Made by a program: the position numbers and the translations under genes
From: Candidatus Latescibacterota bacterium
GTDB taxonomy: Bacteria; Latescibacterota; UBA2968; UBA8231
Assembly (NCBI GenBank): GCA_965243025.1
Contig: CBDETY010000003.1
Coordinates: 3,552,001 to 3,616,000, forward strand
Direction: 5' to 3'
Length of the DNA stretch: 64,000 nt
Shown here: positions 2 through 43,236 of the stretch, piece by piece
Layout: every line of letters begins with the position of its first letter
How positions within the stretch are numbered: position 1 is the first letter of the stretch
Notes under the pieces: model-generated
The model's database searches: none
Told to the model about the DNA's origin: nothing
The model's input: the letters and a program-made list of their open reading frames with translations, nothing else

Positions 2-1349
<1,348 letters not shown>

Positions 1350-1357
<8 letters not shown>

Positions 1358-2786
1358 TTCGCAGACTCGTTGAATCGGTGGGTTTGAACTCGCAGTACAG
1401 GATATGCCTGGTCGACTGTGTGACGCGATGGCCGTGAGCGGTGCGCAAGCCGGCGACCCAGAGGATCTCCCGGCCGCGGGCGAGCAGCAGCGCTTCGTCG
1501 CGCAACAGGCGGGGATGGCCTGCCTCTGCCAGGAGGTCGCTGACCTTCTTGTGGCGTCCCTCGAGTCCGAAGGGCTGCAATCTGTCTCCCTCCTCGATCC
1601 CGCGCAGGCGCAACGGCTCCGACCCCAGCGAATCCGCGTCGAAAACCGCTTCCCAGGTTCCCAGCCGCGGCGCCAGATCGGCGAATGAGCTCCCCGGAAG
1701 GAAGCGCGAGCGGAACTCGAGCGAGCGCTCCGGGAGGGGTACGACTGCGGGGGCTTCGAAGGTCCGATCCACCTGGGCCGCCGCTCCCGCGGTCAGCACC
1801 AGACTGTCGCCCCGGCGCTGAGCCAGTATCCCCGAACCGAGATCGACGATCCCAGCGACCGCCCCCTGCGCCAGTTCGACGAGGGTGTCGACCGCGGCGC
1901 GACCAGCCTCCGAGCGAGGCGGGGAAATCGCTTGCAGCGAATGCCGTAACACCCTGCGCTGTATAGATGTATGATAGTTGGCAAGGATGTGGGCAGCAAG
2001 GACCATACGCGAGGAGTCGGCGCGCATGACAACCTCCGCAACCGCGGCTGAGGCCTCCCGGGCGAGCCGGTCGTCCTCGTCGCGAAGCAGCTCCGACGAG
2101 CGCGTCAGGGTCGGGACGATTTGCGGGTTGAACGAACGCAGCCGCGGGAGCAGCTCCCACCGCACCCTGTTGCGCAGGAACTTCGGATCGCGGTTGCTGG
2201 CGTCTTCGCGGTAGACGACTTCCCGATCTGCCGCGTAGCGGGCGAGAGTGCTGCGGGGGTAGCTCAGCAGCGGCCGCAGGTAACGGTTGCCGCGAACCGG
2301 CGCCATGCCGCCCAGACCGGAAGCACTGCCGCGCAGCAGACGCATGATCACGGTCTCGGCCTGGTCGTCGGCGTGGTGTCCCAGGGCGATGAACTCACAT
2401 CCCGCCTCCGACATGACGCGGTGCAGAAACTCGTAGCGCAACTCGCGAGAGGCCATTTCGAGGGAGATCCGCGCGCCGGCCGCCCGGCTTCTCACGTTTC
2501 CCGCTGCGGTCGTCAAAGGCAGGTCCCGCCTCGCGGCCTCCCCGGCGACGAAAGCCGCGTCGTCCCCGGACCCGGGCCGCAGCTGATGGTCGAAATGGGC
2601 CACGTGAAGCCGCGGCCGAAGCTCAGCGTCGCTCGCGAGAATATCGAGAAGCACCATGGAGTCCATCCCCCCGGACACCGCCACAACGACCCCGGCGCCG
2701 GATTCCCCGGTGGTTTCGCGGACCCACTGGCCGACTGCCGCGGCCAGTTCCTCCGGCGATGCAACCCCTTCCGTGATTCCACTCAT
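1350..2786 (-). CDS. tilS: tRNA(Ile)-lysidine synthetase
   Basis: PP-loop [40 protein letters not shown]....LRNRVR and C-terminal KKVSDLL domain. tilS-ftsH synteny. ATG at 2786 preferred over 2807. Confidence 0.96.
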
Positions 2787-2973
2787 TTCAGGACAACCCG
2801 GGGGCAAGCCGGGGCGCCGGGGGAACCCCTCTCGACGGAGGAAACCGTCTCAAGCACGGGATCCGGAATACCGACCGCACCCGAGGGACCTCCTCTGGCA
2901 GCCGCGACAATTGCGAACGCCGGGGCCAGCCCTCCATGTCCAGGGCCGCACCGGGGTTGTTTCAGGAGGACCT

Positions 2974-21751: not shown

Positions 21752-22289
21752 GGAGGCTTTCGTCGGTCTCGGCTCAAACCTGGGGGACCGGCGCGGGTTC
21801 ATCGCCTCCGGAGTGGCGGCGATCCGCAGGCTGCCCGGGGTCGAGCTCTGTGTGCCCTCTTCCCTCTACGAAACCGACCCGGTCGGCCTGGAGGACCAGC
21901 CGCGCTTCCTGAATGCAGTCGCCCTCGTGCGCACCAGCCTGTCGCCCTCCCGGCTGCTGCGGTCCCTGCTCGCCATCGAGCAGGAGCACGGCAGGCAGCG
22001 GCCGATCCCCGACGGTCCGCGCACCCTCGATCTCGACCTGCTGCTGCACGGAAGCCGCGTCGCCGCCGATGCGGACCTGCAGGTTCCCCATCCCCGCATG
22101 ACCGGGCGCTGCTTCGTGCTCAGACCCCTGCTCGAGCTGGCACCCGGCCTCGTGCATCCCGGGACCGGTGAACGGCTTTCCGACTGCCTCGACAGGTGCG
22201 ACTGTTCGGGGGTTCGCCCGGCGGGAAGGCTTCCCGGCAGGAGTGCCGGGGATTCGGGGATCGCGGAGCCCGGACCCCTCTCTACCTGA
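21717..22289 (+). CDS. folK: 2-amino-4-hydroxy-6-hydroxymethyldihydropteridine diphosphokinase
   Basis: GLGSNLGDR, SSLYET.P, QP.FLNAV, GPRTLDLDLL, PHPRM..R.FVL.PL. Confidence 0.95.
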   Translation: MSKSKSRNPSPEEAFVGLGSNLGDRRGFIASGVAAIRRLPGVELCVPSSLYETDPVGLEDQPRFLNAVALVRTSLSPSRLLRSLLAIEQEHGRQRPIPDGPRTLDLDLLLHGSRVAADADLQVPHPRMTGRCFVLRPLLELAPGLVHPGTGERLSDCLDRCDCSGVRPAGRLPGRSAGDSGIAEPGPLST

Positions 22290-24291
22290 CGAGGGTCACC
22301 GGGGTGCGGTGGCCGGACCTGGAGCCGCCGCGGTCGGAGGCCGCCTTCGCTCTCGCGACGATCCAGTAGACTCCGCTGGCCGCAAGCCGTCCGCCCCGGT
22401 CGAGGCCGTCCCAGGCGATCTCGCGCGAGCCGGACGGAGGGGCCAGGTCCCTGATGCGCTGGCCCAGGGCGTTGTACACGGAGATCTCCAACCCCTCGGT
22501 ATCCCCGGTGAAGGGGATGCGGACCTCGGCGTTGAAGGGATTGGGGAACCCGGGGCCGAGTCTGAAAACCGGGCTGGCGGCGGCGACCGCCGGGCCCGGC
22601 CGGCCGCGGGCGTCCAGCGGTCCGACCGCGACTACTCGCATCCCGCCGCCCAGGGTCAGCTCCAGGACCTGACGCCGACCGCGGTTGAGTGGAATGCTGT
22701 GCCACCGTCCCACGACCTTGCCCTCGGAGGTGAGGGCGCGGGCCTGGTAGAAACCGGTGACCCGGTCGGTGCTGGAGATGGTCAGGGCCACCCGGCCCGC
22801 CGCGTCGGTGACCGCGCTCCAGGCGTAGTCGCGCCGGCGCCCGGCAATGGCGCGGGAGAACTCGACGGTCAAACCCTCGACCGCGTCGCCCAGGACCGTG
22901 GCCTCCACCCCCGTGCGGCGCGCGGCGACCGGCTGCAGGTGGCGCGCCGATATCTCGAACTCCCCAATTACAGCGGAGGTTCTGCCGACGATCAGCGCCA
23001 TGCTGTCGATCTCCGCCGCAATCGCGGAGCCCCGGTTCGAGGCATCGAGCTCGAGCTCGCGAAACTCGCTTCCCCCGGCGCGCATCGACCGTGTCCAGAC
23101 CCGGTACCGCCCCCCTTCCTTTCCGGCGAACTCCAACTGAACACTCCCCGGGGTTCGCAACAGAATGGCGATCGTTCCCCACCGATCCTCGACGCTGCCC
23201 ATGCGGCTCTCCAGCGGCAGCCTGTCGATCGGGTACCAGAGCGCCCGCCGTCCCCTCAGCGCCCCGTAGGTGATCTCATCCCCTTCCGCGGCGTAGTTGC
23301 CGAGGATCCACCCCGACCAGGCCTCCTCGAAGTCCCCGCGCAGGCCGAGACCGGCAAAGGCGGCGTCGATGCCGGGGATGCCGTTCTCCTGCTCCGCCAC
23401 GACGGCGCGGATCAGGTCCCCGCCGTAACGCTCGGCCAGAAAAGCCGAAAACAGGTAGGTCGATCCGTAGTTCCAGGCCCGGTTTTCCCACGCGGTCAGG
23501 CCGGCGCCCGGGCGCCGCAGGAACGCGCCGACGACGGTCGAATCCGCCTCGGGAAACCCGGTCAGGGCCTCGGCGTACCCCGACATCCCCTCGTTCACCC
23601 AGATCTCCTCGTCCATGTCGTGGCCCCAGTGGATGAGGTGCTGGAACTCGTGCGCGAGGGTGCCGCGCGCCAGGTACGTCTGGCGGCGCAGGTACCACTC
23701 GTCGACGTAGAGGATGTCCCTGCGCATTTCGGGAACCTCGTGCCCGGCGACCCGGGCGTCGAAGAACCCGACCAGGCGGGAATCGGGGATGTCGAGAATC
23801 AGCAGGAACACCTGGGGGTAGCCGTCGACGTCGGGAACAGCGCCGAAGGCCTCGGTGCACAGGTCGTGGATGCCGCGGCCGGGATCGGCCGGGGTGGCGC
23901 GCTCGAACAGGTCGGCGACGACGTCTACGTGGGATTGCAGTATCGAGCCGCCGTTGGTGTCCCACTGGCGGTCCTCGACGAACACGAACACCCGTTCTCC
24001 GGCGTAGCGGCAGGTCGCCTGCACAAGGCGCGGGTTGCCGGCGACGGGGAACTCCTGCCGGGTCCCGACGCCGATCTCCGGGAGATCCTGCCGGGCGTCA
24101 GCGCTCCCGGCCGGTTTGGCGGCCCGGAGCGGATGGTCCGGAAGCGGGAACTCCGTGGCAAGCAGCTCGACGAGGCGCGTGCCGCACTGGTACGGGGCCG
24201 CGGCCGACCCCTGGTCCGGGCGCACGCCGACGGCGCCAAGGACAACCGCGAAAAGGAAAACGACTCCTGGCCTGTCCGTGGCGACCTGCAT
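22282..24291 (-). CDS. Secreted zinc metallopeptidase (M30/hyicolysin-like) with an uncharacterised inserted domain and C-terminal T9SS/FlgD-Ig sorting domain
   Basis: Signal peptide; FG..PDVDG; TLAHEFQHLI...E..W.NEG.S; CTD FPNPFN..V.I.F...VYN.LGQ.IR.L...WDG.D..G....SGVY. Confidence 0.85.
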   Translation of the reverse strand: MQVATDRPGVVFLFAVVLGAVGVRPDQGSAAAPYQCGTRLVELLATEFPLPDHPLRAAKPAGSADARQDLPEIGVGTRQEFPVAGNPRLVQATCRYAGERVFVFVEDRQWDTNGGSILQSHVDVVADLFERATPADPGRGIHDLCTEAFGAVPDVDGYPQVFLLILDIPDSRLVGFFDARVAGHEVPEMRRDILYVDEWYLRRQTYLARGTLAHEFQHLIHWGHDMDEEIWVNEGMSGYAEALTGFPEADSTVVGAFLRRPGAGLTAWENRAWNYGSTYLFSAFLAERYGGDLIRAVVAEQENGIPGIDAAFAGLGLRGDFEEAWSGWILGNYAAEGDEITYGALRGRRALWYPIDRLPLESRMGSVEDRWGTIAILLRTPGSVQLEFAGKEGGRYRVWTRSMRAGGSEFRELELDASNRGSAIAAEIDSMALIVGRTSAVIGEFEISARHLQPVAARRTGVEATVLGDAVEGLTVEFSRAIAGRRRDYAWSAVTDAAGRVALTISSTDRVTGFYQARALTSEGKVVGRWHSIPLNRGRRQVLELTLGGGMRVVAVGPLDARGRPGPAVAAASPVFRLGPGFPNPFNAEVRIPFTGDTEGLEISVYNALGQRIRDLAPPSGSREIAWDGLDRGGRLAASGVYWIVARAKAASDRGGSRSGHRTPVTLVR

Positions 24292-25920: not shown

Positions 25921-28900
25921 CTACAGATAACCGAACAGCACGGTGAGGTAGAATTTCCAGGGGGAGCGTCCGGGCAGCTCGTCGATCCCGCGGGCGAGAT
26001 CGGCCTGTGCCCGGGTGGGCAAACTGTAATACGAGATCGAATCGAGGCGCAACTGAAACCCGATGTCGCGCAACGGCCCGGAGCGGCCGTAGAAGGGGTC
26101 GAGATCGCCGAACTCCCCGTCCCAGGCTTTGCCGAGGCTGCCGTAGACCGCCCCGTACAGCTTGTCGAGGTAGATGTGAAAGAGCCGCTTCCGCATGTCC
26201 GGCAGCAGCGGAAAGCGGAACAGCGCCGATCCCATCGCCGCCTTGCGGCCCTCGATGCTGTAAAAGGTGTACCCCTTCATGTACTGCAGGCCGCCGATGT
26301 GGTAGTCGAAGAAGTCGTTGACGCGGTCGTCGTCGTCGACCTCGCCGCTGTCGATCCACCCCCCGAAGAAACGCAGCTCCAGGGCGGTGCCGAACGGCGT
26401 GCCGAGGTATTCCTTCCAGTCGAGCTCCCACTGGTTGTAGAAAAGCCCGAGGTACACCTCCTCGAGGAAGGAGGCGTTGCTGCGGTTGAACTCCTCGAGG
26501 AAGTAGTTGAACACGCGGTCGTAGCGGAACCTGATGCGCCGGCCCCCGCGAGGGTTTATGTCCCTGTCGCGGCGCCGCTCCACCGCCTGGTAATCGTAGC
26601 GTGCCCCGAGGGCGAAGCCGTTCAGGTAGGTGTAGCCGATCGGCTTCATGCGGCGGCGCTCGAACCCGGGGGCGCCGTCGCTGCGGGGAACGAAGGCTTC
26701 CCAGTCGAGGCCGGCGTCGTAGCGGTCGTAGGTCAGCGACAGGGTGAGCTGCCGCCTCAGGGAGGGCCGCTCGTCCCCGATCCGCAGGCCGGCAGCGACC
26801 TGGTTGAGGCTGAAGTTCATCCCGGTGATTATGGCGTCCCGGGCTTCGCTGCTGTCGCCGCGGCTGGTGTGGCGTTTCTGGTGGTAGTACTCGAGAAAGA
26901 GGGTCGGCCGCCAGCGGCGGTGCTCGTACAGGGCGAAGAGCTCGCGGTCGCCGTTGCCCGGTGCGATGGCGAAGCCGCCGAACAGGCTCTGCTTCCGCAG
27001 GACGTCGGAAGAGGAGGCGTACGCTCCCCCCTTTACGCGGCCCTCGTCCCACACCAGGCGCGGCAGCACCATTGTCCTGAGCAGCTCTCCTCCGTACGCC
27101 CGCGGGGCGGAAATCCCTGTGGGGGCTGCCGCCGAAGTCTGCTGCGCAAGTACTCCTGCTTCCGGAGAGGCCGGGGTCGGTCGGGCAAACTCTGTGCCCC
27201 CGGCCCGGGCGTCGAGGCCTGCTGCCGGCCTTGAGAAGGATTGCGAGGCAGCGGCCGGGTGCGCCGAGGCGGTTGGCGTCCCGGCGCTCGACAGCCTTCC
27301 CGTCCCCTCTCGCGCTCCCGGATCAGCTACGGTGCGCAGACGGAACCCGTCCGCTCCGTAGGCGGAGAAGACCACGCTGCCGCCGGGACCGGCCGCCGGA
27401 TTGATCGCGCCCCCGACCACGTTGGTTATCCGGCGGATCCCTCCCTCCACGACAGAAATCGCGTAGATATTGAAAATCCCGGTCGCGTCGGAGGCGAACA
27501 GGATCTCTCCACCCGTCGTCCAGGCCGGATCGCGTTCGGTTGCCCCGGTGGCCACCAGCGGCCGCATGGGACCGGCGAGGCCCGTGTCGGTGTGAATCGC
27601 AGGTCCGCTCGACGGCTTCCCGTCACCTTCCCTCAGCTTCCCGGCAGCCGCCTCGATCCCGCCGCGCTCGAGGTCGACCAGGACGATGTCCCGCTGCCCC
27701 CCGCGGGAGACCGACAGGGCCAGGGTCCCTCCGTCCGGCGACCAGGCAGGGGTGTAGAGCTCGGTGCCGTCGGCGAAATCGGTGAGGTAGAGGACGATGT
27801 CCCCAACGGCGCTGAGCAGGCCGAGGTTGTTCGAGCCGCCCTGGTTGCGGATGAACGCCAGCCACTCGCCGTCCGGGGACCAGGCCGGGTAGAAGGCGCG
27901 CAGTCCGGCGGAAAGCTGCTCCACCCGTTCCGGTTCCGGAGAGTAGGAGAGGACCATTCCAGGGAGCGCCCAGGACAGCTTCGACAGCAACCCCGGCTCA
28001 TCGCCGTCGAGGTCGCAGGTGAACAGGTCCGCCTGGCGCGAGCCGTACCTGTCGGCGCTGTGCTTGCGCACGTAGGCGATCCTGCGTCCGTCGGGCGACC
28101 AGGCCGGACGCGACACCACGCCGCCGGCGACGACTTCATCCTCGCCGGTCTCGAGGTCGCGGATGACGAGCCGGTGGGGTCCGTACTCCCCCGCTCCGGT
28201 GGACAGGAAGGCGAGCCGGTCTCCTGCGGGCGCGTACACGGGATGGATGTTGGAGAACCCCGAGTCGGTGATCTCCTCCCCTTCCCGCAGCTCCCCGAGC
28301 CCTGCGAGCTGCCTGGTGTAGACCTCGCGAAGATGCCGCCGCCACCCATCGTAGAGCTGGCCGGCGGTGATGCCGAGCACTTCCTCGACAGGGCCGTCGA
28401 TCTCGAGGGTGCGCCAGTCGGAGAGAGCGGCGCAGAGCTGCCGCAGGGCGTCGTCGCCGTGCTCGGCGGCGATGTAGCGGACCAGGGCGTAGCCGTGGTC
28501 GTAGACGAACTCGTTGCCGAAACCGGATTTGCCGAACACTCCCATCTGATCGAAGGACAGCAGCTCCTCCTCGAGCGCGGCGACGCGCAGCACCATGTCG
28601 CGGTTGGCGTCCCAGCGGTCGTGCCTTGCGGCGGCCACCTGGTACTGCGCCACCCCCTCGGCGAACCACATCGGGAAGACCGTGGCCGCCAGGGGATAGG
28701 AGACCAGCAGGTCGGGGAACCCGGTCAGGATATCGGGGCGGTTGCGCTCCCGCTGGTACCCGAAATGCTGGAGGTAAAGCGCCGGGGTGCGCTGCCATGC
28801 CTTGCGCGCCGCCCCGAGGGAGACGATGTGCACGAACTCGTGGGTGATGACGTTTGCCAGCCAGTCGCAGGTGCCGCGCAGGTCGAAGTCGTGATCGAGG

Positions 28901-29205
28901 GGAGTGGTCCAGATCTCGATGGCGTCGTGATAGAAGAAGGCGGCGCCGTTGGCGTAGTCGTCGTAGTCCTTGAGAACGATGCGCACCCTGCCGCCGGGGC
29001 GGTAGCGGTAGAGCTCGGTCACCGGACCGTACGCGGCCTCGGCGATCTCGGCCGCCCTCCCGGCAGCCCGGCGCAGACCGTCGTGGTAGAAAACCTCGAA
29101 GTGGGGGGTCTGCAGGACCTCCCACTGCAGCTCGGGGTGGTTCTGTGCCCGGGAGGCTCCCTGCCAGAACAGCAGGACGAGGAGGGCCGGGGCCGCCTTC
29201 CTCAT
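25921..29205 (-). CDS. Gluzincin (MA-like) peptidase + TolB/PD40 propeller + C-terminal outer-membrane barrel protein
   Basis: Signal peptide MRKAAPALLV; HPELQW...TPHF.V.YH; VITHEFVH...WFAEG.A; repeated P(A/V)WSPDG; C-terminal amphipathic strands ending FYLTVLFGYL. Confidence 0.85.
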   Translation of the reverse strand: MRKAAPALLVLLFWQGASRAQNHPELQWEVLQTPHFEVFYHDGLRRAAGRAAEIAEAAYGPVTELYRYRPGGRVRIVLKDYDDYANGAAFFYHDAIEIWTTPLDHDFDLRGTCDWLANVITHEFVHIVSLGAARKAWQRTPALYLQHFGYQRERNRPDILTGFPDLLVSYPLAATVFPMWFAEGVAQYQVAAARHDRWDANRDMVLRVAALEEELLSFDQMGVFGKSGFGNEFVYDHGYALVRYIAAEHGDDALRQLCAALSDWRTLEIDGPVEEVLGITAGQLYDGWRRHLREVYTRQLAGLGELREGEEITDSGFSNIHPVYAPAGDRLAFLSTGAGEYGPHRLVIRDLETGEDEVVAGGVVSRPAWSPDGRRIAYVRKHSADRYGSRQADLFTCDLDGDEPGLLSKLSWALPGMVLSYSPEPERVEQLSAGLRAFYPAWSPDGEWLAFIRNQGGSNNLGLLSAVGDIVLYLTDFADGTELYTPAWSPDGGTLALSVSRGGQRDIVLVDLERGGIEAAAGKLREGDGKPSSGPAIHTDTGLAGPMRPLVATGATERDPAWTTGGEILFASDATGIFNIYAISVVEGGIRRITNVVGGAINPAAGPGGSVVFSAYGADGFRLRTVADPGAREGTGRLSSAGTPTASAHPAAASQSFSRPAAGLDARAGGTEFARPTPASPEAGVLAQQTSAAAPTGISAPRAYGGELLRTMVLPRLVWDEGRVKGGAYASSSDVLRKQSLFGGFAIAPGNGDRELFALYEHRRWRPTLFLEYYHQKRHTSRGDSSEARDAIITGMNFSLNQVAAGLRIGDERPSLRRQLTLSLTYDRYDAGLDWEAFVPRSDGAPGFERRRMKPIGYTYLNGFALGARYDYQAVERRRDRDINPRGGRRIRFRYDRVFNYFLEEFNRSNASFLEEVYLGLFYNQWELDWKEYLGTPFGTALELRFFGGWIDSGEVDDDDRVNDFFDYHIGGLQYMKGYTFYSIEGRKAAMGSALFRFPLLPDMRKRLFHIYLDKLYGAVYGSLGKAWDGEFGDLDPFYGRSGPLRDIGFQLRLDSISYYSLPTRAQADLARGIDELPGRSPWKFYLTVLFGYL

Positions 29206-32200
29206 CGGGCGACCGCCATGCGCACGATGACGTGGCCGCGGCTGCCGTCGGCGGCGCTCGCCTCGAGCCGGCACAGGTAAAGCCCGCTTTCGTAGTCGCC
29301 GGTCCCCCAGGTGATTTCGTTTTCCCCGGGTTCCGCCTGCGGCGATCCGGCGTTCCACCGCCGCTTTTCCACCCGCCTTCCGATGGCGTCGAACACCTCG
29401 AGCTCGAGATCGGCCGGCCGGCTCAGAAAAAAGCGCAGGTGGGCGCGGTCCAGCGAACCGACCGGATTGGGGTAGCAATAGGCCCTGTCGGCCGGCAGCA
29501 GGGCGATCCCGGGCAGGGCGGCCGGGGAGCGTCCTCCGCGCACGGCGCGGCTCCCCTGCGCGTCAGCGGCGCCCTGGCCCCAGGCGGCGGTTCCGCTCCC
29601 GCCCAGTGCGGGAGAAAGGCTCTCCGCATCCCATGCATAAGCGAAATCTCCGGCCAGGGCGGCGATCTCCAGCCCTCCGTCGCCGTCGAGGTCGGAGGCG
29701 ACCGGCGTCGAGCCGACTGCCGCTGCCGTCAGCACCGGGAAGCCGCCGAGCTGACCGCCGCCGTCGTCGATGGCGGCGATCGCACCGGCGCTCGCCGCCA
29801 CGAGGATCTCCTGTCTTCCGTCCCCGTCGAGGTCGGCCAGCAGCGGCTCCCACTCGGTAGTTCCCAGCTTCTGGTGCCTCGGGAACTCCACCGGAAACGA
29901 CGGCATCCGGTGGCCGTTCTCCCGCAACAGATCGACGGCGGCTCCGGAAGCGACGGCAATCTCGAGGGAACCGTCGCCGTCGACGTCTCCGAGGGCGGCG
30001 GGGGCGTCAGCTCCGTGCGGCAGCATCGCCTGCCAGAGGACCTCCCCTTCCCCGCTCAGGGCGGTGACCCTGCCGCCGGCGTCGACGGAGATGATCTCCC
30101 CGCCGCTGTCGCCGCCCAGGTCCCCGGCGACGCTCGGCAACAGCGGGCCTTCGCCTCCAGGTTCCCAGATCCTGCGGGGTCCCTCCGGCCCCAGGCCGGA
30201 AACCGCGTCCGGCGTGGTGACCAGCAGCAGCGCGGATCCCCCGCCGTCGGGCAGCAGGCCGAGGGCCACCGCTCCGGTGAGGCCGGCACCAGCCAGTACC
30301 TCGCCGGTACCCGCCTTCAGCAACTCGATTCTCGAGCCGGTTGCCACGGCCAGGACCGCCTCGGGCGACAGGCCCCCCGGACCGCTGTAAAGCCCGAGAA
30401 CCGCCTCTTCGCCGAGACTCGCCGACCACAGCGGCCCGTCTTGCAGCGGAAGGGATGCGGCGACTTCCCCTCCTGAGGCCACGAACACCGGACCGGGTTC
30501 CCCCGGCCTCCCGGCAGCGGCGGCGAGGTAGGCGCCGGTAAAGGAATCGGAAACGGTTGCCCGACCCCCGGCGAACAGGTGAACGCCCCGGTCGTTTTGC
30601 GCCAGCAGCTCAGCGGCCCCGTCGCCGTCGAGGTCGACCGCCTGCAGCCGCGCCCCCGCCGGCAGGCTTCCCGGCCAGCCCGGAAGGGGGCCGTCGAAGC
30701 TGATTCCGACCGTCATCACGTCCTCGAGAGAGGAGATTACTTCGATGCGAATGCCGCTGGCGACCCCGGTGTTGGCGCCGCTGTTCGGCGTCGTGCCGGG
30801 ACCGAACAGGGTCTTCGACCGGATGCCGCCTCGCCCTTCCCCGGCAAAGAAGGGATCGGCCGGACTGCCTTCGGTGACGTCCTGGCGGTCGAAGAAGGCG
30901 TTGCCGATGTCGCGCCCGCCGTCCGCCTCCTCCAGCGCGATCCCGGGGAAGACGCGGTCGTTGTTGATTCCGCCCTCCGCTTCCCGGGCGGCGATCACCG
31001 CCTCGTCGACGTGCCAGATCAGGATCCCGGACCCTGGAACGAAGGCGTCGTACTCCTCGACCCCGAGCCAGACCCCGGCCATGTCGCCCCCATCCGAATC
31101 GCCCGACCCGGAAAACTCCACCTGATCCGGCTCGATCCAGGTCACCGCGGTTCCCGCGAAGGGCGGCTCGACCCCCTCGGGCAGGTCGGCGTTGCCGCGG
31201 CGCTGGCGGTTCCCGATCAGGAAATACTCCGTCGCCGAAACCGGCACCTGCACCGCCTTGTGCTGTCCCGGCGCAACCGTGCGGTCCGTCGCCGCCACCG
31301 CGACCGCGGTATCCCGCCGCACGACGAGCGGTTCGATCCAGCCGAGACGGGCCTTGCTCCAGGCCATCGGGTGGGGGGGCACGAACCCGAACAGAGTCTC
31401 CAGCTCCCCTCCCTGCAGCAGGAAACCGACCCGGTTGGGACCGACGTCCATCAGGCTCCAGCCTCCCGCACCCGGCAGACCGGCGGCGAAGTTCGACATG
31501 CCCGGCAGCCCGAGCTGGTGGCCGAAGAACTTCGCCATCAGGCCGTTGAGCCCGGCGCGGCCGCGGTCGTCGGCCGCCTCCGGGAGGATCCACGCCTCGC
31601 GGATCCCGGCGCCGTCGGCGAGAACCGGACCCCCTGCGGCACTGCTCTCGAAGTCGTCCGCCGACAGGAACACCGAGAGTATGTCATTCAGATTCTGTCC
31701 GGTCTCGTGCCCGTAGCCGGCATGCAGGAACAGATAGCTGTCGAACCGGGAAAAATCGGGACCCCCGGGATCGGCCCGGGCCAGCTCGACGGCGTCGCGC
31801 ACGAGCTGAACCCACTTGTCGTTTATCTCCTGCGGCGAGCGGCCGTTGCCGTACTGCAGGGCCGGCTCAGGCAGGGTGTAGGCGTCGTTCAGGCCAGCCG
31901 GGAAAACCTCGTGCTCGATGGCGACGCGGCCTTCCGAAACGGTCCGGTAGTAGCGGCCGAGAGCCTCGAGATGGCGCTCGAAATAGAGGCGGTCGTGGGG
32001 TGGAAGATCGTAGGGGAATTCGTAGTCCTGGAGCGCTTCGGAGCTCGTGCGCAGGTCGAATTTACCCAGGCCGGAGGTCGAAGGTTCGTCCGGCTCCTCG
32101 AGCGGGAAGTCGACCCGGATCGCCAGGACGCGCCACGTCGCGGCCCCGTCCTCCTGTCCTCCGGCCCCGGTCGCGAGGAGGAGGGCAGCCGCCAGTGCAG

Positions 32201-32237
32201 GCGCGCGTCTGCCCGGATGTCCGCGGAGCCTCCTCAG
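29202..32237 (-). CDS. M6 (immune inhibitor A)-like pseudo-peptidase + FG-GAP/VCBS repeats + T9SS CTD; probable CTG start at 32237
   Basis: Frame is open 145 codons upstream of the track start and encodes a signal peptide plus VLAIRVDF..PPHD..YF...L...YY..VS.G. Also FLHAG.G, WSLMD.G, AWSK..LGW, EYFL..NR, GILIWHVDE, multiple DLDGDG repeats and YPNP CTD. HExxH is replaced by KFFGH. Confidence 0.85.
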   Translation of the reverse strand: MRRLRGHPGRRAPALAAALLLATGAGGQEDGAATWRVLAIRVDFPLEEPDEPSTSGLGKFDLRTSSEALQDYEFPYDLPPHDRLYFERHLEALGRYYRTVSEGRVAIEHEVFPAGLNDAYTLPEPALQYGNGRSPQEINDKWVQLVRDAVELARADPGGPDFSRFDSYLFLHAGYGHETGQNLNDILSVFLSADDFESSAAGGPVLADGAGIREAWILPEAADDRGRAGLNGLMAKFFGHQLGLPGMSNFAAGLPGAGGWSLMDVGPNRVGFLLQGGELETLFGFVPPHPMAWSKARLGWIEPLVVRRDTAVAVAATDRTVAPGQHKAVQVPVSATEYFLIGNRQRRGNADLPEGVEPPFAGTAVTWIEPDQVEFSGSGDSDGGDMAGVWLGVEEYDAFVPGSGILIWHVDEAVIAAREAEGGINNDRVFPGIALEEADGGRDIGNAFFDRQDVTEGSPADPFFAGEGRGGIRSKTLFGPGTTPNSGANTGVASGIRIEVISSLEDVMTVGISFDGPLPGWPGSLPAGARLQAVDLDGDGAAELLAQNDRGVHLFAGGRATVSDSFTGAYLAAAAGRPGEPGPVFVASGGEVAASLPLQDGPLWSASLGEEAVLGLYSGPGGLSPEAVLAVATGSRIELLKAGTGEVLAGAGLTGAVALGLLPDGGGSALLLVTTPDAVSGLGPEGPRRIWEPGGEGPLLPSVAGDLGGDSGGEIISVDAGGRVTALSGEGEVLWQAMLPHGADAPAALGDVDGDGSLEIAVASGAAVDLLRENGHRMPSFPVEFPRHQKLGTTEWEPLLADLDGDGRQEILVAASAGAIAAIDDGGGQLGGFPVLTAAAVGSTPVASDLDGDGGLEIAALAGDFAYAWDAESLSPALGGSGTAAWGQGAADAQGSRAVRGGRSPAALPGIALLPADRAYCYPNPVGSLDRAHLRFFLSRPADLELEVFDAIGRRVEKRRWNAGSPQAEPGENEITWGTGDYESGLYLCRLEASAADGSRGHVIVRMAVAR

Positions 32238-33286
32238 AACGTCAGGTTCAGGGAGAAACGGGTGTTGTCCTCCATCGGCGTGTCGTCACCCGTCACGTAC
32301 GCCACGTCGACCTGGAACATGTTGTATTTCAGTCCCATCCCGAACGTGGGGAATTTGAGCTCGCCGTCGTGGTCCCACCTGTATCCGGCCCGCAGCGCGA
32401 GAAACGACTGGTCCTGCTGGGCAGACAGGCCGTAGCGGTACTCCCCGCCCACGTGGAAGTCCATTTCCTCGATCTCGTTGCCGAGGCCCTCGTCCGCCCA
32501 CGCCTTCACCAGGTTGCCGGCGAACGAGCCGTCGGCGATCAGGGGTTTGTAGAGATCGAATGCGAGCAGGACGTCGTGGTACTCGGCGTCGAGCAGCTCG
32601 TAGGCGAAGCCGGCGACGATATGCTGCGGAAGGGGATCGGCCTGGCTCGGGTCGATGTAGGCCATCTTGGGGCCGAGATAGCGGAGCGCCGAGCCGAACG
32701 TAAGGGCCGGTGTGATGTCCCAAAGCATACCGAGGTCGGCGGCAAAGCTGCTGCCGACTCCCTTGCCGCGCTCGATTCCCGCACCCTGTTCGGGAGAGAG
32801 GCGGCTGTGGATGAACTTCAGGCCGACGCCCGCCTTCATGTTGTCGGAGACGTCCGCGCCGTAGGCGACGCTGACCGCGAACTCGTTGCTCGAGAAGGTC
32901 CCGAGCACGTCGTCGGGCCGCTCACCCATTCGCGTCTGCTCCCCGAGATTCATCCAGATTCCGTTGATACCGACGTTCCCCCAGCCCTCGACCGGTTGCG
33001 AGTAGGCGACGAACTCGTACGACATGTCGTCGGCGAGACCGGGAAGCCACTTCGCATGAGTCAGGTGGAGCTTGCGCTCGGTCTGCCCGGCGAGGGCGGC
33101 AGGGTTGAAGTAGCTGGCGTTGTCCTCGACAGCGACGTACGACTCCCCCATCGCTATGGACCGCGCATCCGGCTTTATCAGGAGGAAGATGACAGTGGCG
33201 CGGCTCTCCGAGGTAGCCGAGGCGGGTTCGGCCGCGGCGGCCAGCAGGGAGACGGTCACGCACCAGGCGGCGAGTTTGTCAAGCAC
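32234..33286 (-). CDS. porV: Type IX secretion outer-membrane shuttle PorV
   Basis: FLLI.PDAR...MGE...A.....YFNPA.L, H..WLP.L..DM, G.....DLG, ALRAGY, P..NT.RFSL..F; immediately downstream of porU. Confidence 0.85.
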   Translation of the reverse strand: MLDKLAAWCVTVSLLAAAAEPASATSESRATVIFLLIKPDARSIAMGESYVAVEDNASYFNPAALAGQTERKLHLTHAKWLPGLADDMSYEFVAYSQPVEGWGNVGINGIWMNLGEQTRMGERPDDVLGTFSSNEFAVSVAYGADVSDNMKAGVGLKFIHSRLSPEQGAGIERGKGVGSSFAADLGMLWDITPALTFGSALRYLGPKMAYIDPSQADPLPQHIVAGFAYELLDAEYHDVLLAFDLYKPLIADGSFAGNLVKAWADEGLGNEIEEMDFHVGGEYRYGLSAQQDQSFLALRAGYRWDHDGELKFPTFGMGLKYNMFQVDVAYVTGDDTPMEDNTRFSLNLTF

Positions 33287-33440: not shown

Positions 33441-36400
33441 TCATTTCATCACCTGGATGGCGGCCTTCCTCTCGATGCGCCAGCCATCGGCGAGCTCGAC
33501 CTCTACCTGGTACAGGTAGGTGCCGTTGGCGAGCTCCCCGGGAGGAGTCCAGGCCACCTGGTTGAAGTCGGCATGCCCCGTGCCGGAAAGCTCGTCGACG
33601 AGCGTTCCGGCGAGCGAGAACACCCTGATGCGGACAGATTCCGCTGCATCTTCGAGAGTGTACGTGAAGTCGCCCCTGTCCCGCATCGGGTTCGGGTGGA
33701 ACAGCAGCCGGGAAAGCACCCCGTCCTCCGCCTCCGAGACACGCACTTCCGCCTCGACCTGCGACGAGTTGTTGAACGTGTCCCAGGCCTTGAGACGCAA
33801 GGTATGGGTACCCGGTTCCATGGCGGGCAGCGGGAACTCGAGGAGGCCGCTGCGGTAGTCCCCGGTATTGTGGAAGTGCTCGGTGACGATGAAGCGCGCA
33901 CCGTCCACCCGGAGCTCCATTTCGTGCCCGGTTTCCCCGGTTATGTTGATGCCGTTCCGATCGCTGATCACAGCTTCGAGGACCGCTTCGCCGGGGATGG
34001 TGTCCCCGCTTTTGAAACCATCCTTCCCCTTGAATCCAATCGCAATCTCGGGTCCGGTCTCGTCGGCGGAAACGCCGGTCGCCGTGCCGGCGAGAACCAG
34101 GCTGTCGACCGACCCGAAAGCGGCCCGGGCATGGTCACTCCAAACATAGGCACTGACCCGGCCGTTGTCCTCCTTGTAGCTGATGTCCTTGGGCACGCGG
34201 AAGGCGGTCTCGAAACGGCCCCCTGCAACCGGTACCAGGCCGCGGAAAATCGGATTCCCGATTCGGTCGTAGGAGATATCGTCCAGCTTGCTCCTCGTAG
34301 TGGAGTCGAACGCCTGCACGAGGGCGGTTCCGGTGAAGTCTTCCACCGGCCGTCCGTCGGAGTCGAGAATCCGGCCGGCGACGCGGACCTCCTCGAGCGC
34401 CCGGACCGAATCCGGCACCTCGATGGCGACGACGTACCGGGGTCTGGCGAGGCGCAGCGCCGGGTCGCCGATCAGGCAGTAGCGCTGCATGTTGGTGCGG
34501 TCGTCCTCGTTGCCTGTGATGTTCTGCTTGGCGATCGTCAGCGCCAGTCCGAGAGGCAGGTGACTCTCCCCCGATCTGTACATCAGCCGGTGGAACTCCC
34601 GGGCGAGGTACATGTTGCTGCTGTGGAATCCTACCCGGGCGGCCGATATGAACCCGATCACCCCGCCGTCGGCGCGGTTCATCAGAACCTCCGGGATCGA
34701 CTGCTGGTTCGGATCGTCGAACACCCCGACCTGGCTCGCGGCCGTGTACATGAACGGCAACCGCCTGCCGTTGTCGATCAGGTCGGCGTCCCTTGAAAGC
34801 AGGAACATCTTCTCGTGGGCGAGCACGTCGAGGCTCCCGTGTCCGAGGTAGGTGACAATCAGCGCTCCCTCGTTGAAGCGGCGCACGAAGGCATCCCTTG
34901 CCTGCGGCTTGGTGCTCCCCTCGAGCGGAAACTGGGCGATGTAGAGCTTGACGAGATCGAGGTCGGCAGGGAAGAAGCGCTTCGCCAGCGACTCGGCGTC
35001 GAGGATGAAGTAGGATTCCCTGAGTTCCAGTTTCGACGGATGGCGCAGGTCGTCCGCCACCAGCAGCACCCGGCTCTGCCATGGACCGACCTCCGGGTCC
35101 GAGTCGTACGAGATCAGCTTGTCGACCACCCCCTCCGCCTCCGTTGCCGACTGCACCGGCAATCTGCCGATGGCCAGGTCGGGAATCCGGTCCTCTCCTT
35201 CGACCCGCACGTACCATTCGTCGAACATGCTTATGCCTTCCTGGTACGCCGGCATCCAGTTCGGGTGGCTGGTGCCCGTGCTGTTCTTGTAGTCGTAGGT
35301 CCCGTCACCCATCAGGCAGATGAACCAGGGAGCAGGGTCCCAGTTGTCGACCGCGTAGTTGACGAACGACCGGATCGCCATCGGATCGACCAGCCCCCCG
35401 GAGAACTCGTCGTACACGTCCTCGACGTCGACCGAAATCGCCCGCATCGGTCCGAAACGGTCCCCGGCGGCGCGCCACTCCGCCAGGCGGTCGGCGGCGG
35501 CGCGGAAATCGGCATGGGTGAGAACGATGTAGTCCGCGCCGTTTCCCGGGGTGCGCAACCTGCTGGGGAAATCGAGCCGTATGTTTGCCGGCCGCTTCCA
35601 CCGGGAGGGCGCACTGGCGATGTATCGAGGCGGAATTCCCCCGCCTTCGAACCGGTCCTGGAAGACCGCGGTTCCCGCGGTCCCGTCCCAGTCGAAACCG
35701 ACGATTTCCCTCGGCCACCCCAGCCCGGAGATCGCGAAGATCCGGGGTTTTCCCTCTTCGGCGAACCCCGACAGAACAAACTCCGCCGTTACCGCGTCCT
35801 CATTCTCAAGCATCGCCGACGGCGGCCAGGCGAAGGTCAGCTCGCCCCCCTCAGCCGACAGCCGGCGGTCGAATTCGACCTCGATCCAGTCCAGGCGCGT
35901 CCCCTTGTTGTCGCGCTGGAAGATTCCGAGCTGATTCAGGCCCTCCTTCGGGCCCTGCGGGGCCCGCGCCCGGAGGGTGGCCACGAACATGCTGTCCATC
36001 CTTGCCTGTCCTGCCAACTCGTCGTTCCAGTACAGATCGAACCTGTGGACGGCTCTCTTCGATCCCCAGAAACGGACCCGGATGTCGACGGGGGTCCCCG
36101 GGACCGCTTCGCGCACGATCACGGAAAAGTTGCGGGCGTTCCCCCCGAAGTCCTCCCAGTACCAGTCGTAACCGGTCTTTATGCTCCACGTCAGCAACCG
36201 GATCATGCGGTCGTCCTCGAGATGGATCCGCTCGCGGTAGCTGTCGATCCGGCGCGCCGAACCGTTGTCCAGAGCTCCGCTGCTTCGACTCATCCTGAGA
36301 CCCTCCACCTCGGCGCCGGTATCGAGGAAGTAGACGTTCTCCTCGGTGAAGGGATTCTGCCGCCAGAAATACTGCTTCGCGTCGCGCCCGTACTCCCAGC

Positions 36401-37379
36401 GTTGGGTCGCCTCGCCGTAGAACAGCAGGAAGTCGTCCGCGTCGAAGCGGCCGTCGCCGCCGTCCTCGACCAGGACCGGGATTTCGCGGCGGGAGATACC
36501 TGGGATTACGGCGCGCTGGAGACCCAGAACCCGGCCCCCTCCGTACAGCATGCGCAGGCGTTCCGGGGCAACCGTCTCCAGATCGATGCCCGCTTCGGCC
36601 AGGGCGGCCCCGGTGACTTTGTACATGCCGTTGCTGCGGACCGTGAGCCTGAGCACCTCGCCGCTCAGCGTCTGCTCATCGGTTGCCTTGCCGGCCCCGG
36701 GGCTCCCCGCCGGGAGACGCCAGGACCTCGCCTGCTCGTAGTTGACGAGGGTGTTGCGGTACAGCAGCTCCCCCCACTTGTCGGGCCGGGAACGCCGTTT
36801 CGATCCCGGAGAGCTGGAAAAGCGCAGCTCGACCTCGATGCGGTCGAAAACGGTGAGTTCCTCGCCGTCGAGCCGGGGTCCGAACCCGACGGCAACTACT
36901 TCCTGCCTTCGCAGAAGGCCGCGTTCCCCGAGCGCGACCGGGCCCTGGACCAGACCCGCGAAGTGCTCCACCGCCCCGGGCGCGTGGACTCGTGCGGCGA
37001 CGCGGGCTTCGATGACCTCCATCTCGACTTCGCTGTCCGGGGGAATGCCGACGGTGCAGCTGCGGTGGAGGTCGCGGAGGTGATCGAAGGCGATCGGCTC
37101 GACCGAAGCGGGACCGGATGGAGTCTCGGGCCCGGCCTCGTAGAGAAGGCGCACGCTGCCGGGACCGTGCCCGGTCATTTCGGCAGACGCCGTCCAGGAA
37201 CTGGCCAGGACGGCTCGGGCATGGGAAAGCTGCCCGGCGAGTCCGGCGGGGGTTTCAGGCCCGCGGGGCGGGGGTGAGTCCATTGCCGGCCAGGGGGGCT
37301 GCGCTTCCACCGCCGCGGTCAGGGCCGCGAGCGAGAGGACGAGCGCAATCCCGTCCCGCGGAGTACGGTTGAAGATCAC
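33441..37379 (-). CDS. porU: Type IX secretion sortase PorU (peptidase C25/gingipain family) with CTD
   Basis: G.YKVTG..L, L.YGGG, FYG...W.Y, ADYI...F..AA.RLA..R, VYDEFSGG..DP.AIR.F, GDG.YDYK, IGRLPV, YLGHG, LIGDPA, D..GPEI, L.LKAWD..NNS, PNP CTD. Confidence 0.9.
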   Translation of the reverse strand: MIFNRTPRDGIALVLSLAALTAAVEAQPPWPAMDSPPPRGPETPAGLAGQLSHARAVLASSWTASAEMTGHGPGSVRLLYEAGPETPSGPASVEPIAFDHLRDLHRSCTVGIPPDSEVEMEVIEARVAARVHAPGAVEHFAGLVQGPVALGERGLLRRQEVVAVGFGPRLDGEELTVFDRIEVELRFSSSPGSKRRSRPDKWGELLYRNTLVNYEQARSWRLPAGSPGAGKATDEQTLSGEVLRLTVRSNGMYKVTGAALAEAGIDLETVAPERLRMLYGGGRVLGLQRAVIPGISRREIPVLVEDGGDGRFDADDFLLFYGEATQRWEYGRDAKQYFWRQNPFTEENVYFLDTGAEVEGLRMSRSSGALDNGSARRIDSYRERIHLEDDRMIRLLTWSIKTGYDWYWEDFGGNARNFSVIVREAVPGTPVDIRVRFWGSKRAVHRFDLYWNDELAGQARMDSMFVATLRARAPQGPKEGLNQLGIFQRDNKGTRLDWIEVEFDRRLSAEGGELTFAWPPSAMLENEDAVTAEFVLSGFAEEGKPRIFAISGLGWPREIVGFDWDGTAGTAVFQDRFEGGGIPPRYIASAPSRWKRPANIRLDFPSRLRTPGNGADYIVLTHADFRAAADRLAEWRAAGDRFGPMRAISVDVEDVYDEFSGGLVDPMAIRSFVNYAVDNWDPAPWFICLMGDGTYDYKNSTGTSHPNWMPAYQEGISMFDEWYVRVEGEDRIPDLAIGRLPVQSATEAEGVVDKLISYDSDPEVGPWQSRVLLVADDLRHPSKLELRESYFILDAESLAKRFFPADLDLVKLYIAQFPLEGSTKPQARDAFVRRFNEGALIVTYLGHGSLDVLAHEKMFLLSRDADLIDNGRRLPFMYTAASQVGVFDDPNQQSIPEVLMNRADGGVIGFISAARVGFHSSNMYLAREFHRLMYRSGESHLPLGLALTIAKQNITGNEDDRTNMQRYCLIGDPALRLARPRYVVAIEVPDSVRALEEVRVAGRILDSDGRPVEDFTGTALVQAFDSTTRSKLDDISYDRIGNPIFRGLVPVAGGRFETAFRVPKDISYKEDNGRVSAYVWSDHARAAFGSVDSLVLAGTATGVSADETGPEIAIGFKGKDGFKSGDTIPGEAVLEAVISDRNGINITGETGHEMELRVDGARFIVTEHFHNTGDYRSGLLEFPLPAMEPGTHTLRLKAWDTFNNSSQVEAEVRVSEAEDGVLSRLLFHPNPMRDRGDFTYTLEDAAESVRIRVFSLAGTLVDELSGTGHADFNQVAWTPPGELANGTYLYQVEVELADGWRIERKAAIQVMK

Positions 37380-41289: not shown

Positions 41290-43236
41290 CTACGGGGTGT
41301 AGTACCACAGGCGCCGCTTCTTCGGTTCGGTGTTGGGCTCGTACGCCCTGGTCCGCTCCTCGTTGAAGAAGAGCTCGACCAGCGTCAGGGGCGCCTCGTC
41401 GCCGAACTCCCGCTTCCACTCGCGCGCCAGGTACTTACACAGCAGGGGGCGGTAGTCCTTCTTCTCCTTCTTGCGCAGCGACATCATGTACTTGCGCCAG
41501 CGCGGCCCGCGGAAGCTCTCGACAAGGCGATTCGGGCGGTCCCATGAGACCTCGGGCGACTCCTCCCCGAAGACGACGTGGCGGTAGAGATCGACCTGCG
41601 TTCCGTCCTCCAGGGTGCCGACGACCACGTACCAGCCGATGATGCGTGGCGGCTTCGGCGCGAACATCCGCCAGGACTGGCCTACTCCCAGGATACGGCC
41701 GTACCAGCGGCGGTCGACCCGGTTCCCCTCCCCGTCGTCCTTGCTGTAAATCCAGCTCGCCGACGCCGCCGAGAACCTGCCGCCGACCGAGTCGGCGGCG
41801 AAGACCTCCTTGTTGTGCAAGATGCGGGCGTTCCAGAGCAGGATGTAGGCGAGGGTGGCCAGCAGAAAGCCGTTCCGCAGCCAGACGAGGGGCCGGCGCA
41901 CCTGCCTGTCCCGGCGCGGACGGATCCAGCCGGTCAGGCGGCCCATCAGCTCGCGGCGGTTCGCCGTCTGTTCGTACAGCCAGGTGCCCGGTCTCCGGAA
42001 CACCGCCCTCCCGAGGACCTTCCCCGCGGGCCAGGCCCACGGGGACCGGGAGAGCACGTAGCTGAATGCCTCGAACTTGAAGCGGCGCTTCCCCTCGGGG
42101 TCGGTTACCACCCACGAGTTGCGGGCCCGCATGTCGCGCTCGATCTCCGCGTCCTCCCGGGCCTCGGCGATGCGCGTTTCGGGAAGCAGGAAGAAGCTTC
42201 TCAGCAGCAGGACCATGCGGAGGCAGAAGCCGCAGTCGGCGTCGTAGTGGATGGTCATACCGAGCCGCTCCGGATCGCGCCGGAAGCGCGCGAAGAGCCT
42301 GTCCCAGACCCAGGGCGGCAGGAGGGCGAGCCACATGGCGCTGCATATGTACGAGAAGAGCCCGATTTGAAGGGTCGCCGCGAACCCCAGGTGCATGGCG
42401 ATCATGACGACGCAGGCGGCCAGCCGCAGCGGGCCGACGAGGAACGGAATCCAGATCAGCACCGGCACGAGGAACTCGACGTGGAGGGTCGTGCGGGTCA
42501 TTAGCTCGAGCCATGCGGCCGGCAGCTCCCGCATCAGGACCGCGAGCGGCAGGGCAATGTAGTCGAGCTGGAGGGTGTACCAGACCGCGGTCCGTTCCGA
42601 AATCCAGATCGGGTGGTTCTTCAACAGCGCCGTCGCCCAGTATACGATCGTGACCTGCGCCAGGAAGCAGAAAGCGGGGACCGACCAGGTGCGGTCGCTG
42701 CCTTTCTCCGGGCGGTCACGGGCCGGTTCCCGCATCGCCGCGTCGACGGAGCAGCGCGCCCCGAGGGGGAGGAACAGCGACCAGAAGAGGATCACCCGGA
42801 ACAGCATATCGCCGGCGTTGAGGATGGTGGGGTTCCGGTTGTGGAGCGACACCAGAAGCACCCAGCTGAGAAAGGTGAAGAGCCGGGTCCGGTGGCCGAT
42901 CAGCAGGCAGAAGGCGCAGCAGGCGGCGACAGCGAAGAGGAGGAGCTGCACCCCCCAGAGGCCGCTCAGCATGTGCAGGGACACCAGCCACGGAGTCGAG
43001 CCGGTGGCGACCCGGCCCAGCAGATCGACCCGCGGCAGCACCCCGGCGTCGGAGTAGAAGACCCGCAGATCGGTCAGCCGGGCGGCCAGGTCGACGAGCA
43101 GGAGCAGGCCGAGCAGGATGCGGAAGAGGGCCAGCGACCTCAGGTCGAGGCCGAAGCGCTCGCGCCAGCCGCGGAGCAGATTCCTGAGCCGGGCGATAGT
43201 GGAGTTCGAGGGGGAAGCCGCGGCCGGTCCGTCCAT
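41290..43236 (-). CDS. HTTM-domain membrane protein fused with DCC1-like (DUF393) thiol-disulfide module
   Basis: DLRSLALFRI.LG, SL.NRNP...GD, LPLG...S.D, MH.GF, YDADCGFC, Q.W.MFAP.P, RWRKY. Confidence 0.88.
   Translation of the reverse strand: MDGPAAASPSNSTIARLRNLLRGWRERFGLDLRSLALFRILLGLLLLVDLAARLTDLRVFYSDAGVLPRVDLLGRVATGSTPWLVSLHMLSGLWGVQLLLFAVAACCAFCLLIGHRTRLFTFLSWVLLVSLHNRNPTILNAGDMLFRVILFWSLFLPLGARCSVDAAMREPARDRPEKGSDRTWSVPAFCFLAQVTIVYWATALLKNHPIWISERTAVWYTLQLDYIALPLAVLMRELPAAWLELMTRTTLHVEFLVPVLIWIPFLVGPLRLAACVVMIAMHLGFAATLQIGLFSYICSAMWLALLPPWVWDRLFARFRRDPERLGMTIHYDADCGFCLRMVLLLRSFFLLPETRIAEAREDAEIERDMRARNSWVVTDPEGKRRFKFEAFSYVLSRSPWAWPAGKVLGRAVFRRPGTWLYEQTANRRELMGRLTGWIRPRRDRQVRRPLVWLRNGFLLATLAYILLWNARILHNKEVFAADSVGGRFSAASASWIYSKDDGEGNRVDRRWYGRILGVGQSWRMFAPKPPRIIGWYVVVGTLEDGTQVDLYRHVVFGEESPEVSWDRPNRLVESFRGPRWRKYMMSLRKKEKKDYRPLLCKYLAREWKREFGDEAPLTLVELFFNEERTRAYEPNTEPKKRRLWYYTP

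Follow-up and report, generated by a model that had tools for sequence, protein, structure and literature searches.

This account concerns the gene for PorU, the enzyme that finishes type IX secretion, in a stretch of 64,000 nucleotides from a Candidatus Latescibacterota bacterium (contig CBDETY010000003.1, positions 3,552,001 to 3,616,000; the whole stretch is called the window below, and coordinates are given within it). In this gene, and throughout the lineage to which it belongs, serine stands where other PorU proteins have their catalytic cysteine, and the clade-wide serine form would on this evidence be one of two things: an enzyme of the caspase/gingipain fold working with a serine nucleophile, the first of its kind, or a scaffold that is conserved but does not catalyse. 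An initial annotation, made from the letters of the window, had already posed the choice as one between a serine enzyme and a dead scaffold; these were the right alternatives, although sequence alone does not decide between them. The reading favoured here over a scaffold is that of an active Ser-His PorU, working as peptidase/sortase on the C-terminal sorting domains (CTDs) of secreted proteins, to which we would give somewhat better than an even chance.

The gene lies on the minus strand at 33441..37379, in a window of roughly 67% G+C, and its open frame encodes a protein of 1312 amino acids (P0001) built of an N-terminal region, the C25 catalytic domain, Ig-like domains and what looks like a type IX secretion system (T9SS) tail at the C-terminus. 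The NCBIfam profile NF033707 ('type IX secretion system sortase PorU') matches residues 239-1296 with 614.5 bits against a cut-off of 420, the PorU2 profile (NF052324) reaches 140.5 bits, under its cut-off of 450, and the top match among PDB chains searched with phmmer is PorU of P. gingivalis (6za2, E 4.6e-61, residues 616-1297), the gingipains following weakly. The Peptidase C25 (gingipain/caspase-like, clan CD) catalytic domain itself, residues 617-977 (34449..35531, minus strand), covers the Pfam profile PF01364 from end to end (249.7 bits, profile 1-374 of 374). PorU would also carry its own type-A-like CTD at residues 1229-1294 (33498..33695, minus strand); the profile matches there are weak, TIGR04183 at 18.2 bits (cut-off 23) and FlgD_ig at 19.5 bits (cut-off 27) both falling below threshold, and the stretch aligns with the CTD of 6za2, up to residue 1297. 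The initial annotation had called the gene PorU, which the NF033707 score and the match to 6za2 bear out, and by every criterion tested it can be taken as a PorU ortholog, save only for the defining nucleophile.

Across the site the minus-strand translation reads ...IVTYLGHGSLDVLAHEKMFLLSRDADLIDNGRRLPFMYTAASQVGVFDDP.... The catalytic histidine, His847 (codon CAC, 34839..34841, minus strand), lies in a YLGHG motif and is matched in the alignments by the catalytic His of both PorU and RgpB; 35 residues past it, in the motif TAASQVGVFDD, phmmer alignment and translation place Ser882 (codon AGC, a single base from TGC; 34734..34736, minus strand) in the catalytic-Cys position. In the phmmer alignments to PDB chains 'ytaaSqvgvfdd' of P0001 pairs with 'itatCdfanyd' of 6za2 and with 'fdvaCvngdf' of RgpB (1cvr), and it is because of these two alignments that Ser882 is assigned to the catalytic-Cys column and His847 to the catalytic-His column. 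Two alignment gaps account for the His-nucleophile spacing being 35 in P0001 as against 33 in P. gingivalis PorU, the catalytic His of which we take to be His657. Two claims of the initial annotation, that the YLGHG motif is intact (CAC at 34841-34839, aligned with the catalytic His) and that Ser replaces Cys in a (T/A)-x-C-x4-[FY]D context, are thus upheld, the latter by the PDB alignments. Arg915 (34635..34637, minus strand) is the equivalent of the PorU-specific Arg722 of P. gingivalis, 'sttRv' of 6za2 lying over 'saaRv' of P0001; it is kept in both the Ser and the Cys sets, with a conservation of 98% or more within the Ser clade. Gorasia et al. (PMC4560394) likened Arg722, which lies 32 residues after the Cys, to the sortase Arg.

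How far the serine extends was established at several depths. A search of 5.8 billion proteins gave 505 matches, the best 120 of which (domain identity 59-98%) were used, making 121 sequences with the query. His is present in all 121 (one has GHA for GHG) and Ser in 120, the sole exception being P0041, which has Cys. From a library of representatives at 50% identity, with 15,842 matches at E<=0.001, the best 150 were taken, and 146 rows cover the column: Ser occurs there in 12 full-length sequences and 2 fragments, all at least 48% identical to the query, and Cys in 131, including P0194 (one residue off in BLAST; MAFFT gives Cys). A MAFFT set of 260 domains divides into 127 Ser, 132 Cys and 1 with neither. 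One row of the representative set, P0149 (1709 aa), lacks the His, having 'GGGN' in place of GHG, and BLAST aligns no clear nucleophile in it; this C25 homologue may represent a true pseudoenzyme elsewhere in the family. By source name most homologues are Candidatus Latescibacterota/Latescibacteria, and some are Gemmatimonadota.

At the level of genomes, 163 of the 168 belonging to the phylum contain a match. The window's family (f1) has 76 genomes, and the Ser-type PorU is found in 74/74 of those read, G160 and G163 (76% and 87% complete) having been left out; a second family, f9, has it in 2/2. Nine other families (f5-f8 and f10-f14) have Cys (TGY) at 31/31 loci, while in families f2-f4, which belong to the window's class, the 5/5 genomes checked have only a longer C25 protein of 1905-1991 aa, with Cys. 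Outside the phylum, in a genome-contig survey with the single domain (relatives of up to 43% identity), the tblastn column gives His and Cys at 76 of 79 C25 loci, and the remaining three are alignment slips with a visible 'TCLN' motif. Clade-wide conservation of the serine, to which the initial annotation had looked for confirmation, is therefore found (120/121 clusters, being the query and the best 120 of 505, and 74/74 family genomes read), and the TGC in close relatives that would have spoken against it is not seen save in one nested revertant, the Cys protein P0041. Nor has the nucleophile moved: a relocated Cys was considered and rejected, no Cys being conserved among the 121 sequences, in which the three cysteines of P0001 itself occur just 31, 13 and 9 times. 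This bears on the other observation named beforehand as adverse, another Cys placed by the His in a structural model.

The codons tell a similar story. Those read for Ser number 99 (51 AGC and 48 AGT; each locus counted once, genome and metagenome loci not being de-duplicated against each other), with no TCN codon at any of the 99 loci, and retention of the residue through synonymous AGC/AGT flips shows purifying selection. The mixture of AGY and TCN codons that the initial annotation had proposed as a mark of selection did not materialise, AGY being found at 99/99. On one metagenome contig locus of 6181 nt (L192) there are two Ser-type C25 domains, one with AGC and one with AGT, which look like tandem porU paralogs.

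Since AGC is a single base from TGC, and contamination of the assembly is estimated at 6%, one might ask if the serine is a sequencing or assembly error, or a sign of a decaying pseudogene. The frame, however, is open through all 1312 aa, AGY is read at each of the 99 Ser loci, and both independent runs and a second copy of the gene in the same genome tell against an artefact, which is scarcely credible. Logan contigs from runs of different studies cover 34734-34736, and no other letter appears there among the differences listed: record 3 of X1 (34659-34821, 163 bases) and record 16 of X5 (34591-34790, 200 bases) each have 0 differences from the window, and record 24 of X6 (34516-35200) has 6, none of them listed at the Ser882 codon. 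This comparison holds 93 further differences beyond those listed, and one of the runs may come from the very sample that gave the window. The listed variant nearest the codon, 34737 C>G, is synonymous in the Ala881 codon. Confirmation of the base in reads, which had been suggested at the outset, is thus in hand insofar as AGC is seen in contigs of independent runs. The second porU copy also reads TAASQ; it lies about 2.5 Mb off on the same contig (L001, G000:C3:6050608-6056781, open reading frame (ORF) 787-4725), with 94.9% DNA identity over 4012 nt, and the likeness ends at the gene ends. In the ORF listing there is no PorV-sized ORF within 1.4 kb after it.

Some further observations were made on the metagenome runs. 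The summed contig depth rises by about 4-15-fold over the block containing the Ser codon (34697-34750) in the non-RNA runs X1, X5 and X6, and short contigs of other organisms in these samples match only this ultra-conserved block. The RNA run X20 was considered as evidence of expression and rejected: its contigs (34761-35042 and other parts) miss the Ser codon, and they differ from the window at several places, so that they could be DNA carry-over or come from a relative. The region 34400-35200 is present, in the whole or most of its sampled words, in 20 runs of 13 studies, those with visible labels being sponge, coral and marine metagenomes, and by these run labels bacteria with the Ser-PorU appear to be common in such samples.

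The surroundings of the serine are as firmly kept as the residue itself. Among 1301 segments of 11 residues in the alignment of 121 sequences, none vary less than those centred on 882-885 (their mean entropy is 0.35, the median being 1.67), and the one around Ser882 ranks fifth by conservation. When 60 positions at least 80% conserved in the 132 Cys-type domains are followed into the 127 Ser-type domains, 55 are found to be kept at 90% or more, GHG, E856, D888 and R915 among them; those that change are the nucleophile, N843T and three partial cases. The Ser type has 26 clade-specific positions, of which those near the site are Thr843 (for Asn), Ala881 (for Thr/Ser), Gln883, Val886 and His919. 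To judge from these comparisons the Ser-type site is without sign of decay.

The history of the change was followed in a tree (IQ-TREE, 'quick') built from 60 catalytic domains, hand-picked from the homologue lists, with two long outgroups (to which long-branch warnings applied). One clade, with SH-aLRT 100, holds 40 rows, 38 with Ser and 2 with Cys. P0041 (Cys, 'YTVTCQVGAFDD') is nested within the Ser subclades with support 98, and P0129 (Cys, 'YTAACAVGQFDH'), the motif of which is one residue off the Ser motif, is at the unresolved base of the Ser clade. The well-supported branches require at least two nucleophile changes, and the simplest history on this tree would be that Cys gave way to Ser a single time near the base, by one transversion (TGY to AGY), and that one reversal came later. 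The only residue ever seen replacing Ser is Cys, the other nucleophile. DNA for P0041 was sought in metagenomes, where only relatives of up to 56% identity were found.

An AF2 model of residues 600-1000 (pLDDT 79.6, pTM 0.84) has the gingipain fold, and a Foldseek search with it returned RgpB 1cvr first (E 8e-16, TMq 0.70), then Kgp (6i9a), PorU, separase and caspases. His847 lies at the C-terminal end of model strand 242-247 and Ser882 at the C-terminal end of strand 277-282, so that in the secondary structure of the model the two residues end neighbouring strands, as they do in clan CD.

Put together, these observations allow a more specific proposal, to which we would assign no better than even odds: a working enzyme, the first natural serine peptidase/transpeptidase of clan CD, which would process about 100 cargo proteins per genome by way of an acyl-ester, and which would have come about through a TGY-to-AGY change together with N843T, T/S881A, Q883 and H919, at least one lineage having gone back to Cys. 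The T-to-A change that turned TGY into AGY would have been a single event close to the root of one PorU lineage, selection having kept the serine since. CTD-bearing cargo would be passed to PorU by PorV; Ser882, with His847 as general base, would then attack the bond before the CTD, giving an acyl-ester in place of a thioester. This intermediate could be resolved either by water, releasing the cargo, or by an amine from a PorZ-like partner, anchoring it. Arg915 and the other conserved residues of the pocket would act as in the Cys-type PorU, and Thr843, Ala881, Gln883 and His919 are candidates for having tuned the site to a hydroxyl nucleophile.

There are nevertheless several points that weigh against such an enzyme. 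Changing Cys to Ser is the standard way of inactivating clan CD enzymes, and because it usually does so a bare swap would be expected to kill activity unless compensated; nor do we know of any serine-nucleophile member of clan CD. One of the Foldseek matches is itself a separase structure carrying C2029S, according to the title of the entry, and the loops of the model just after His and Ser (model residues 252-257 and 285-289) have pLDDT below 50. As no codon crosses to TCN, the strongest codon-level sign of selection is absent, and a CTD binder that does not cut might show a site just as strongly conserved. Finally, the catalytic mutant of P. gingivalis PorU is C690A (PMC5562754).

If Ser882 is indeed inert, the protein would be a pseudoenzyme in which fold, groove and place in the PorV/PorZ/PorQ attachment complex are all kept, and which binds CTDs uncut, these then staying on the cargo or being taken off by some unrelated protease. 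The inactivating nature of the change and the separase entry speak for this, and a conserved binding groove would explain the conservation around Ser882. There are also partial parallels in the structural roles of P. gingivalis PorU in the attachment complex (PMC5562754) and in the pseudo-orthocaspases of clan CD, which have Ser at the Cys position (PMC6426788). Those known pseudo-variants, however, lose the His as well (Tyr-Ser), whereas here it is present in 121/121 sequences alongside Ser in 120/121; the 55 retained positions include the PorU-specific Arg; and the one replacement seen is Cys, which a dead site would have no reason to prefer. Moreover, five genomes of genus g12, each a single contig (G128, G130, G132, G142 and G146), have exactly one C25 gene apiece by Pfam, of the Ser type, and the two of them that were checked bear 28 (G130) and 59 (G132) T9SS CTD matches at E<=1e-6. 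A pseudoenzyme thus seems a doubtful, though by no means idle, possibility.

The same five genomes bear on a division of labour, according to which a long (~1850-aa) Cys-type C25 paralog would be the true CTD peptidase/sortase and the Ser-PorU only an adaptor. Such a paralog does exist in the window's genome as its third C25 gene (L175:6298-11826, minus strand, at about 5.086-5.092 Mb of G000:C3; 1842 aa), with His...Cys (TGC) intact and with neighbouring ORFs that have T9SS type A and type B tails, and families f2-f4 of the same class, as noted above, have only the long Cys type in the 5/5 genomes checked. It is, however, missing from the five single-contig g12 genomes, where the sole C25 gene is the Ser-PorU, and most g12 genomes give one match only; it also falls below both the PorU and the PorU2 cut-offs (300.8 bits against 420 and 225.7 against 450), and no porV-like gene adjoins it among the ORFs scanned. 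We consider this arrangement improbable.

Returning to the active Ser-His PorU, the remainder of the secretion apparatus would be in place for it. The window's genome has 99 T9SS CTD matches, and its SprA translocon scores 598 bits summed. Directly downstream of porU, forming a porU-porV pair, is a gene for an outer-membrane beta-barrel of the PorV/PorQ family (32234..33286, minus strand; NF033709 222.6 bits, cut-off 90), which also matches NF033710 PorV at 147 bits (below the cut-off of 250) and Pfam PorV at 45 bits. With PorZ_N the best match in the window's own genome has 24 bits, below the cut-off of 27. The idea that PorZ is absent, and that the Ser-PorU would then be a pure hydrolase, was rejected, as PorZ-like ORFs are found in 73/75 genomes of the window's family and 2/2 of the other Ser family; the sister families f2-f4 gave PorZ_N matches in 0/56. 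In several relatives (G156:C57, G157:C20, G105:C2 and G158:C120) a second, more divergent Ser-type porU (52-56% identity to the query) has a PorZ-like ORF of about 740-820 aa at a distance of 3-4 kb, which suggests a porZ-porU module beside the porU-porV pair.

Further along the minus strand, the next ORF after porV (29202..31802) is M6-like, with FG-GAP repeats and a CTD-like tail. It matches in part NF052323, a family that NCBI names 'inactivated' M6-like (241.7 bits, below the cut-off of 600), its translation contains no HExxH, and it is probably a T9SS cargo protein. Two more minus-strand ORFs, to judge from profile scans and translations, are probably secreted metallopeptidases: one at 22282-24291 combines HEFQH (residue 214) with a FlgD-Ig/T9SS-like tail, and the other at 25921-29478 combines HEFVH (residue 213) with PD40/TolB-like repeats. 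Both look like ordinary T9SS cargo. The initial annotation had supposed that, were PorU dead, a metallopeptidase of the operon might remove the CTDs; this finds no support, the ORF after porV being without HExxH and those that have it resembling cargo. At 41290-43236, also on the minus strand, lies an ORF of 648 aa in which Pfam recognises an HTTM domain, like that of vitamin K-dependent gamma-carboxylase (33 bits, cut-off 27.7).

Set beside known systems, the protein most resembles P. gingivalis PorU (PG0026, 6za2, MEROPS C25), with which it shares the alignment over residues 616-1297, the catalytic His, the equivalent of Arg722 in R915, [FY]D four residues past the nucleophile, a probable C-terminal tail of its own and a neighbouring porV-family gene. 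It differs in having Ser882 for Cys690, a spacing of 35 rather than 33, and Thr843, Ala881, Gln883, Val886 and His919, and its host is of Latescibacterota type, that of the P. gingivalis protein belonging to Bacteroidota. In structure the modelled domain is matched best by the gingipains RgpB and Kgp, which likewise have His and nucleophile ending neighbouring strands, but identity is only about 17%, and gingipains work with Cys244 and with an Asp/S1 pocket that takes Arg or Lys; they are also described as being without the PorU-specific Arg (PMC4560394). Much closer are the Cys-type PorU proteins of other Latescibacterota families and P0129, which have 34-49% domain identity, agree with the Ser type in architecture and in length (~1300 aa) and share with it 55 of the 60 conserved positions; unlike it, those of the nine families keep Cys (TGY) at all 31 loci. 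The pseudo-orthocaspases share the clan CD fold and a lineage-conserved Ser in the Cys position but have Tyr-Ser for His-Cys and are presumed inactive (PMC6426788), in contrast to the Ser-PorU, where neither the His nor the remainder of the site varies.

Among the matches listed by literature searches on the catalytic cysteine or nucleophile of PorU (titles and abstracts) no description of a Ser-type PorU was found, nor was any literature found on type IX secretion in Latescibacter. Natural interchange of Cys and Ser occurs in other peptidase clans such as clan PA, where one fold serves chymotrypsin-like Ser and picornain-like Cys enzymes with a His base, though these, unlike the Ser-PorU, have different folds and a full catalytic triad; for clan CD we know of no such interchange having been described.

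The Cys-His chemistry of PorU, with its thioester intermediate, is the basis of the accepted sortase-like model (PMC4560394, PMC10202324). A serine that is lineage-wide, under strong selection and once reversed would amount to a natural experiment on a hydroxyl nucleophile in clan CD, and it opens a second question, namely how the nucleophile may affect the way in which hydrolysis (release) is balanced against aminolysis (anchoring). If the Ser-PorU is active, a serine branch would be needed in a protease clan regarded as cysteine-only, and family-based annotation would err in its case by calling such proteins non-peptidases; should it be inactive, the T9SS of these bacteria would be handling about 100 CTD cargoes without a canonical sortase, which would be equally unexpected.

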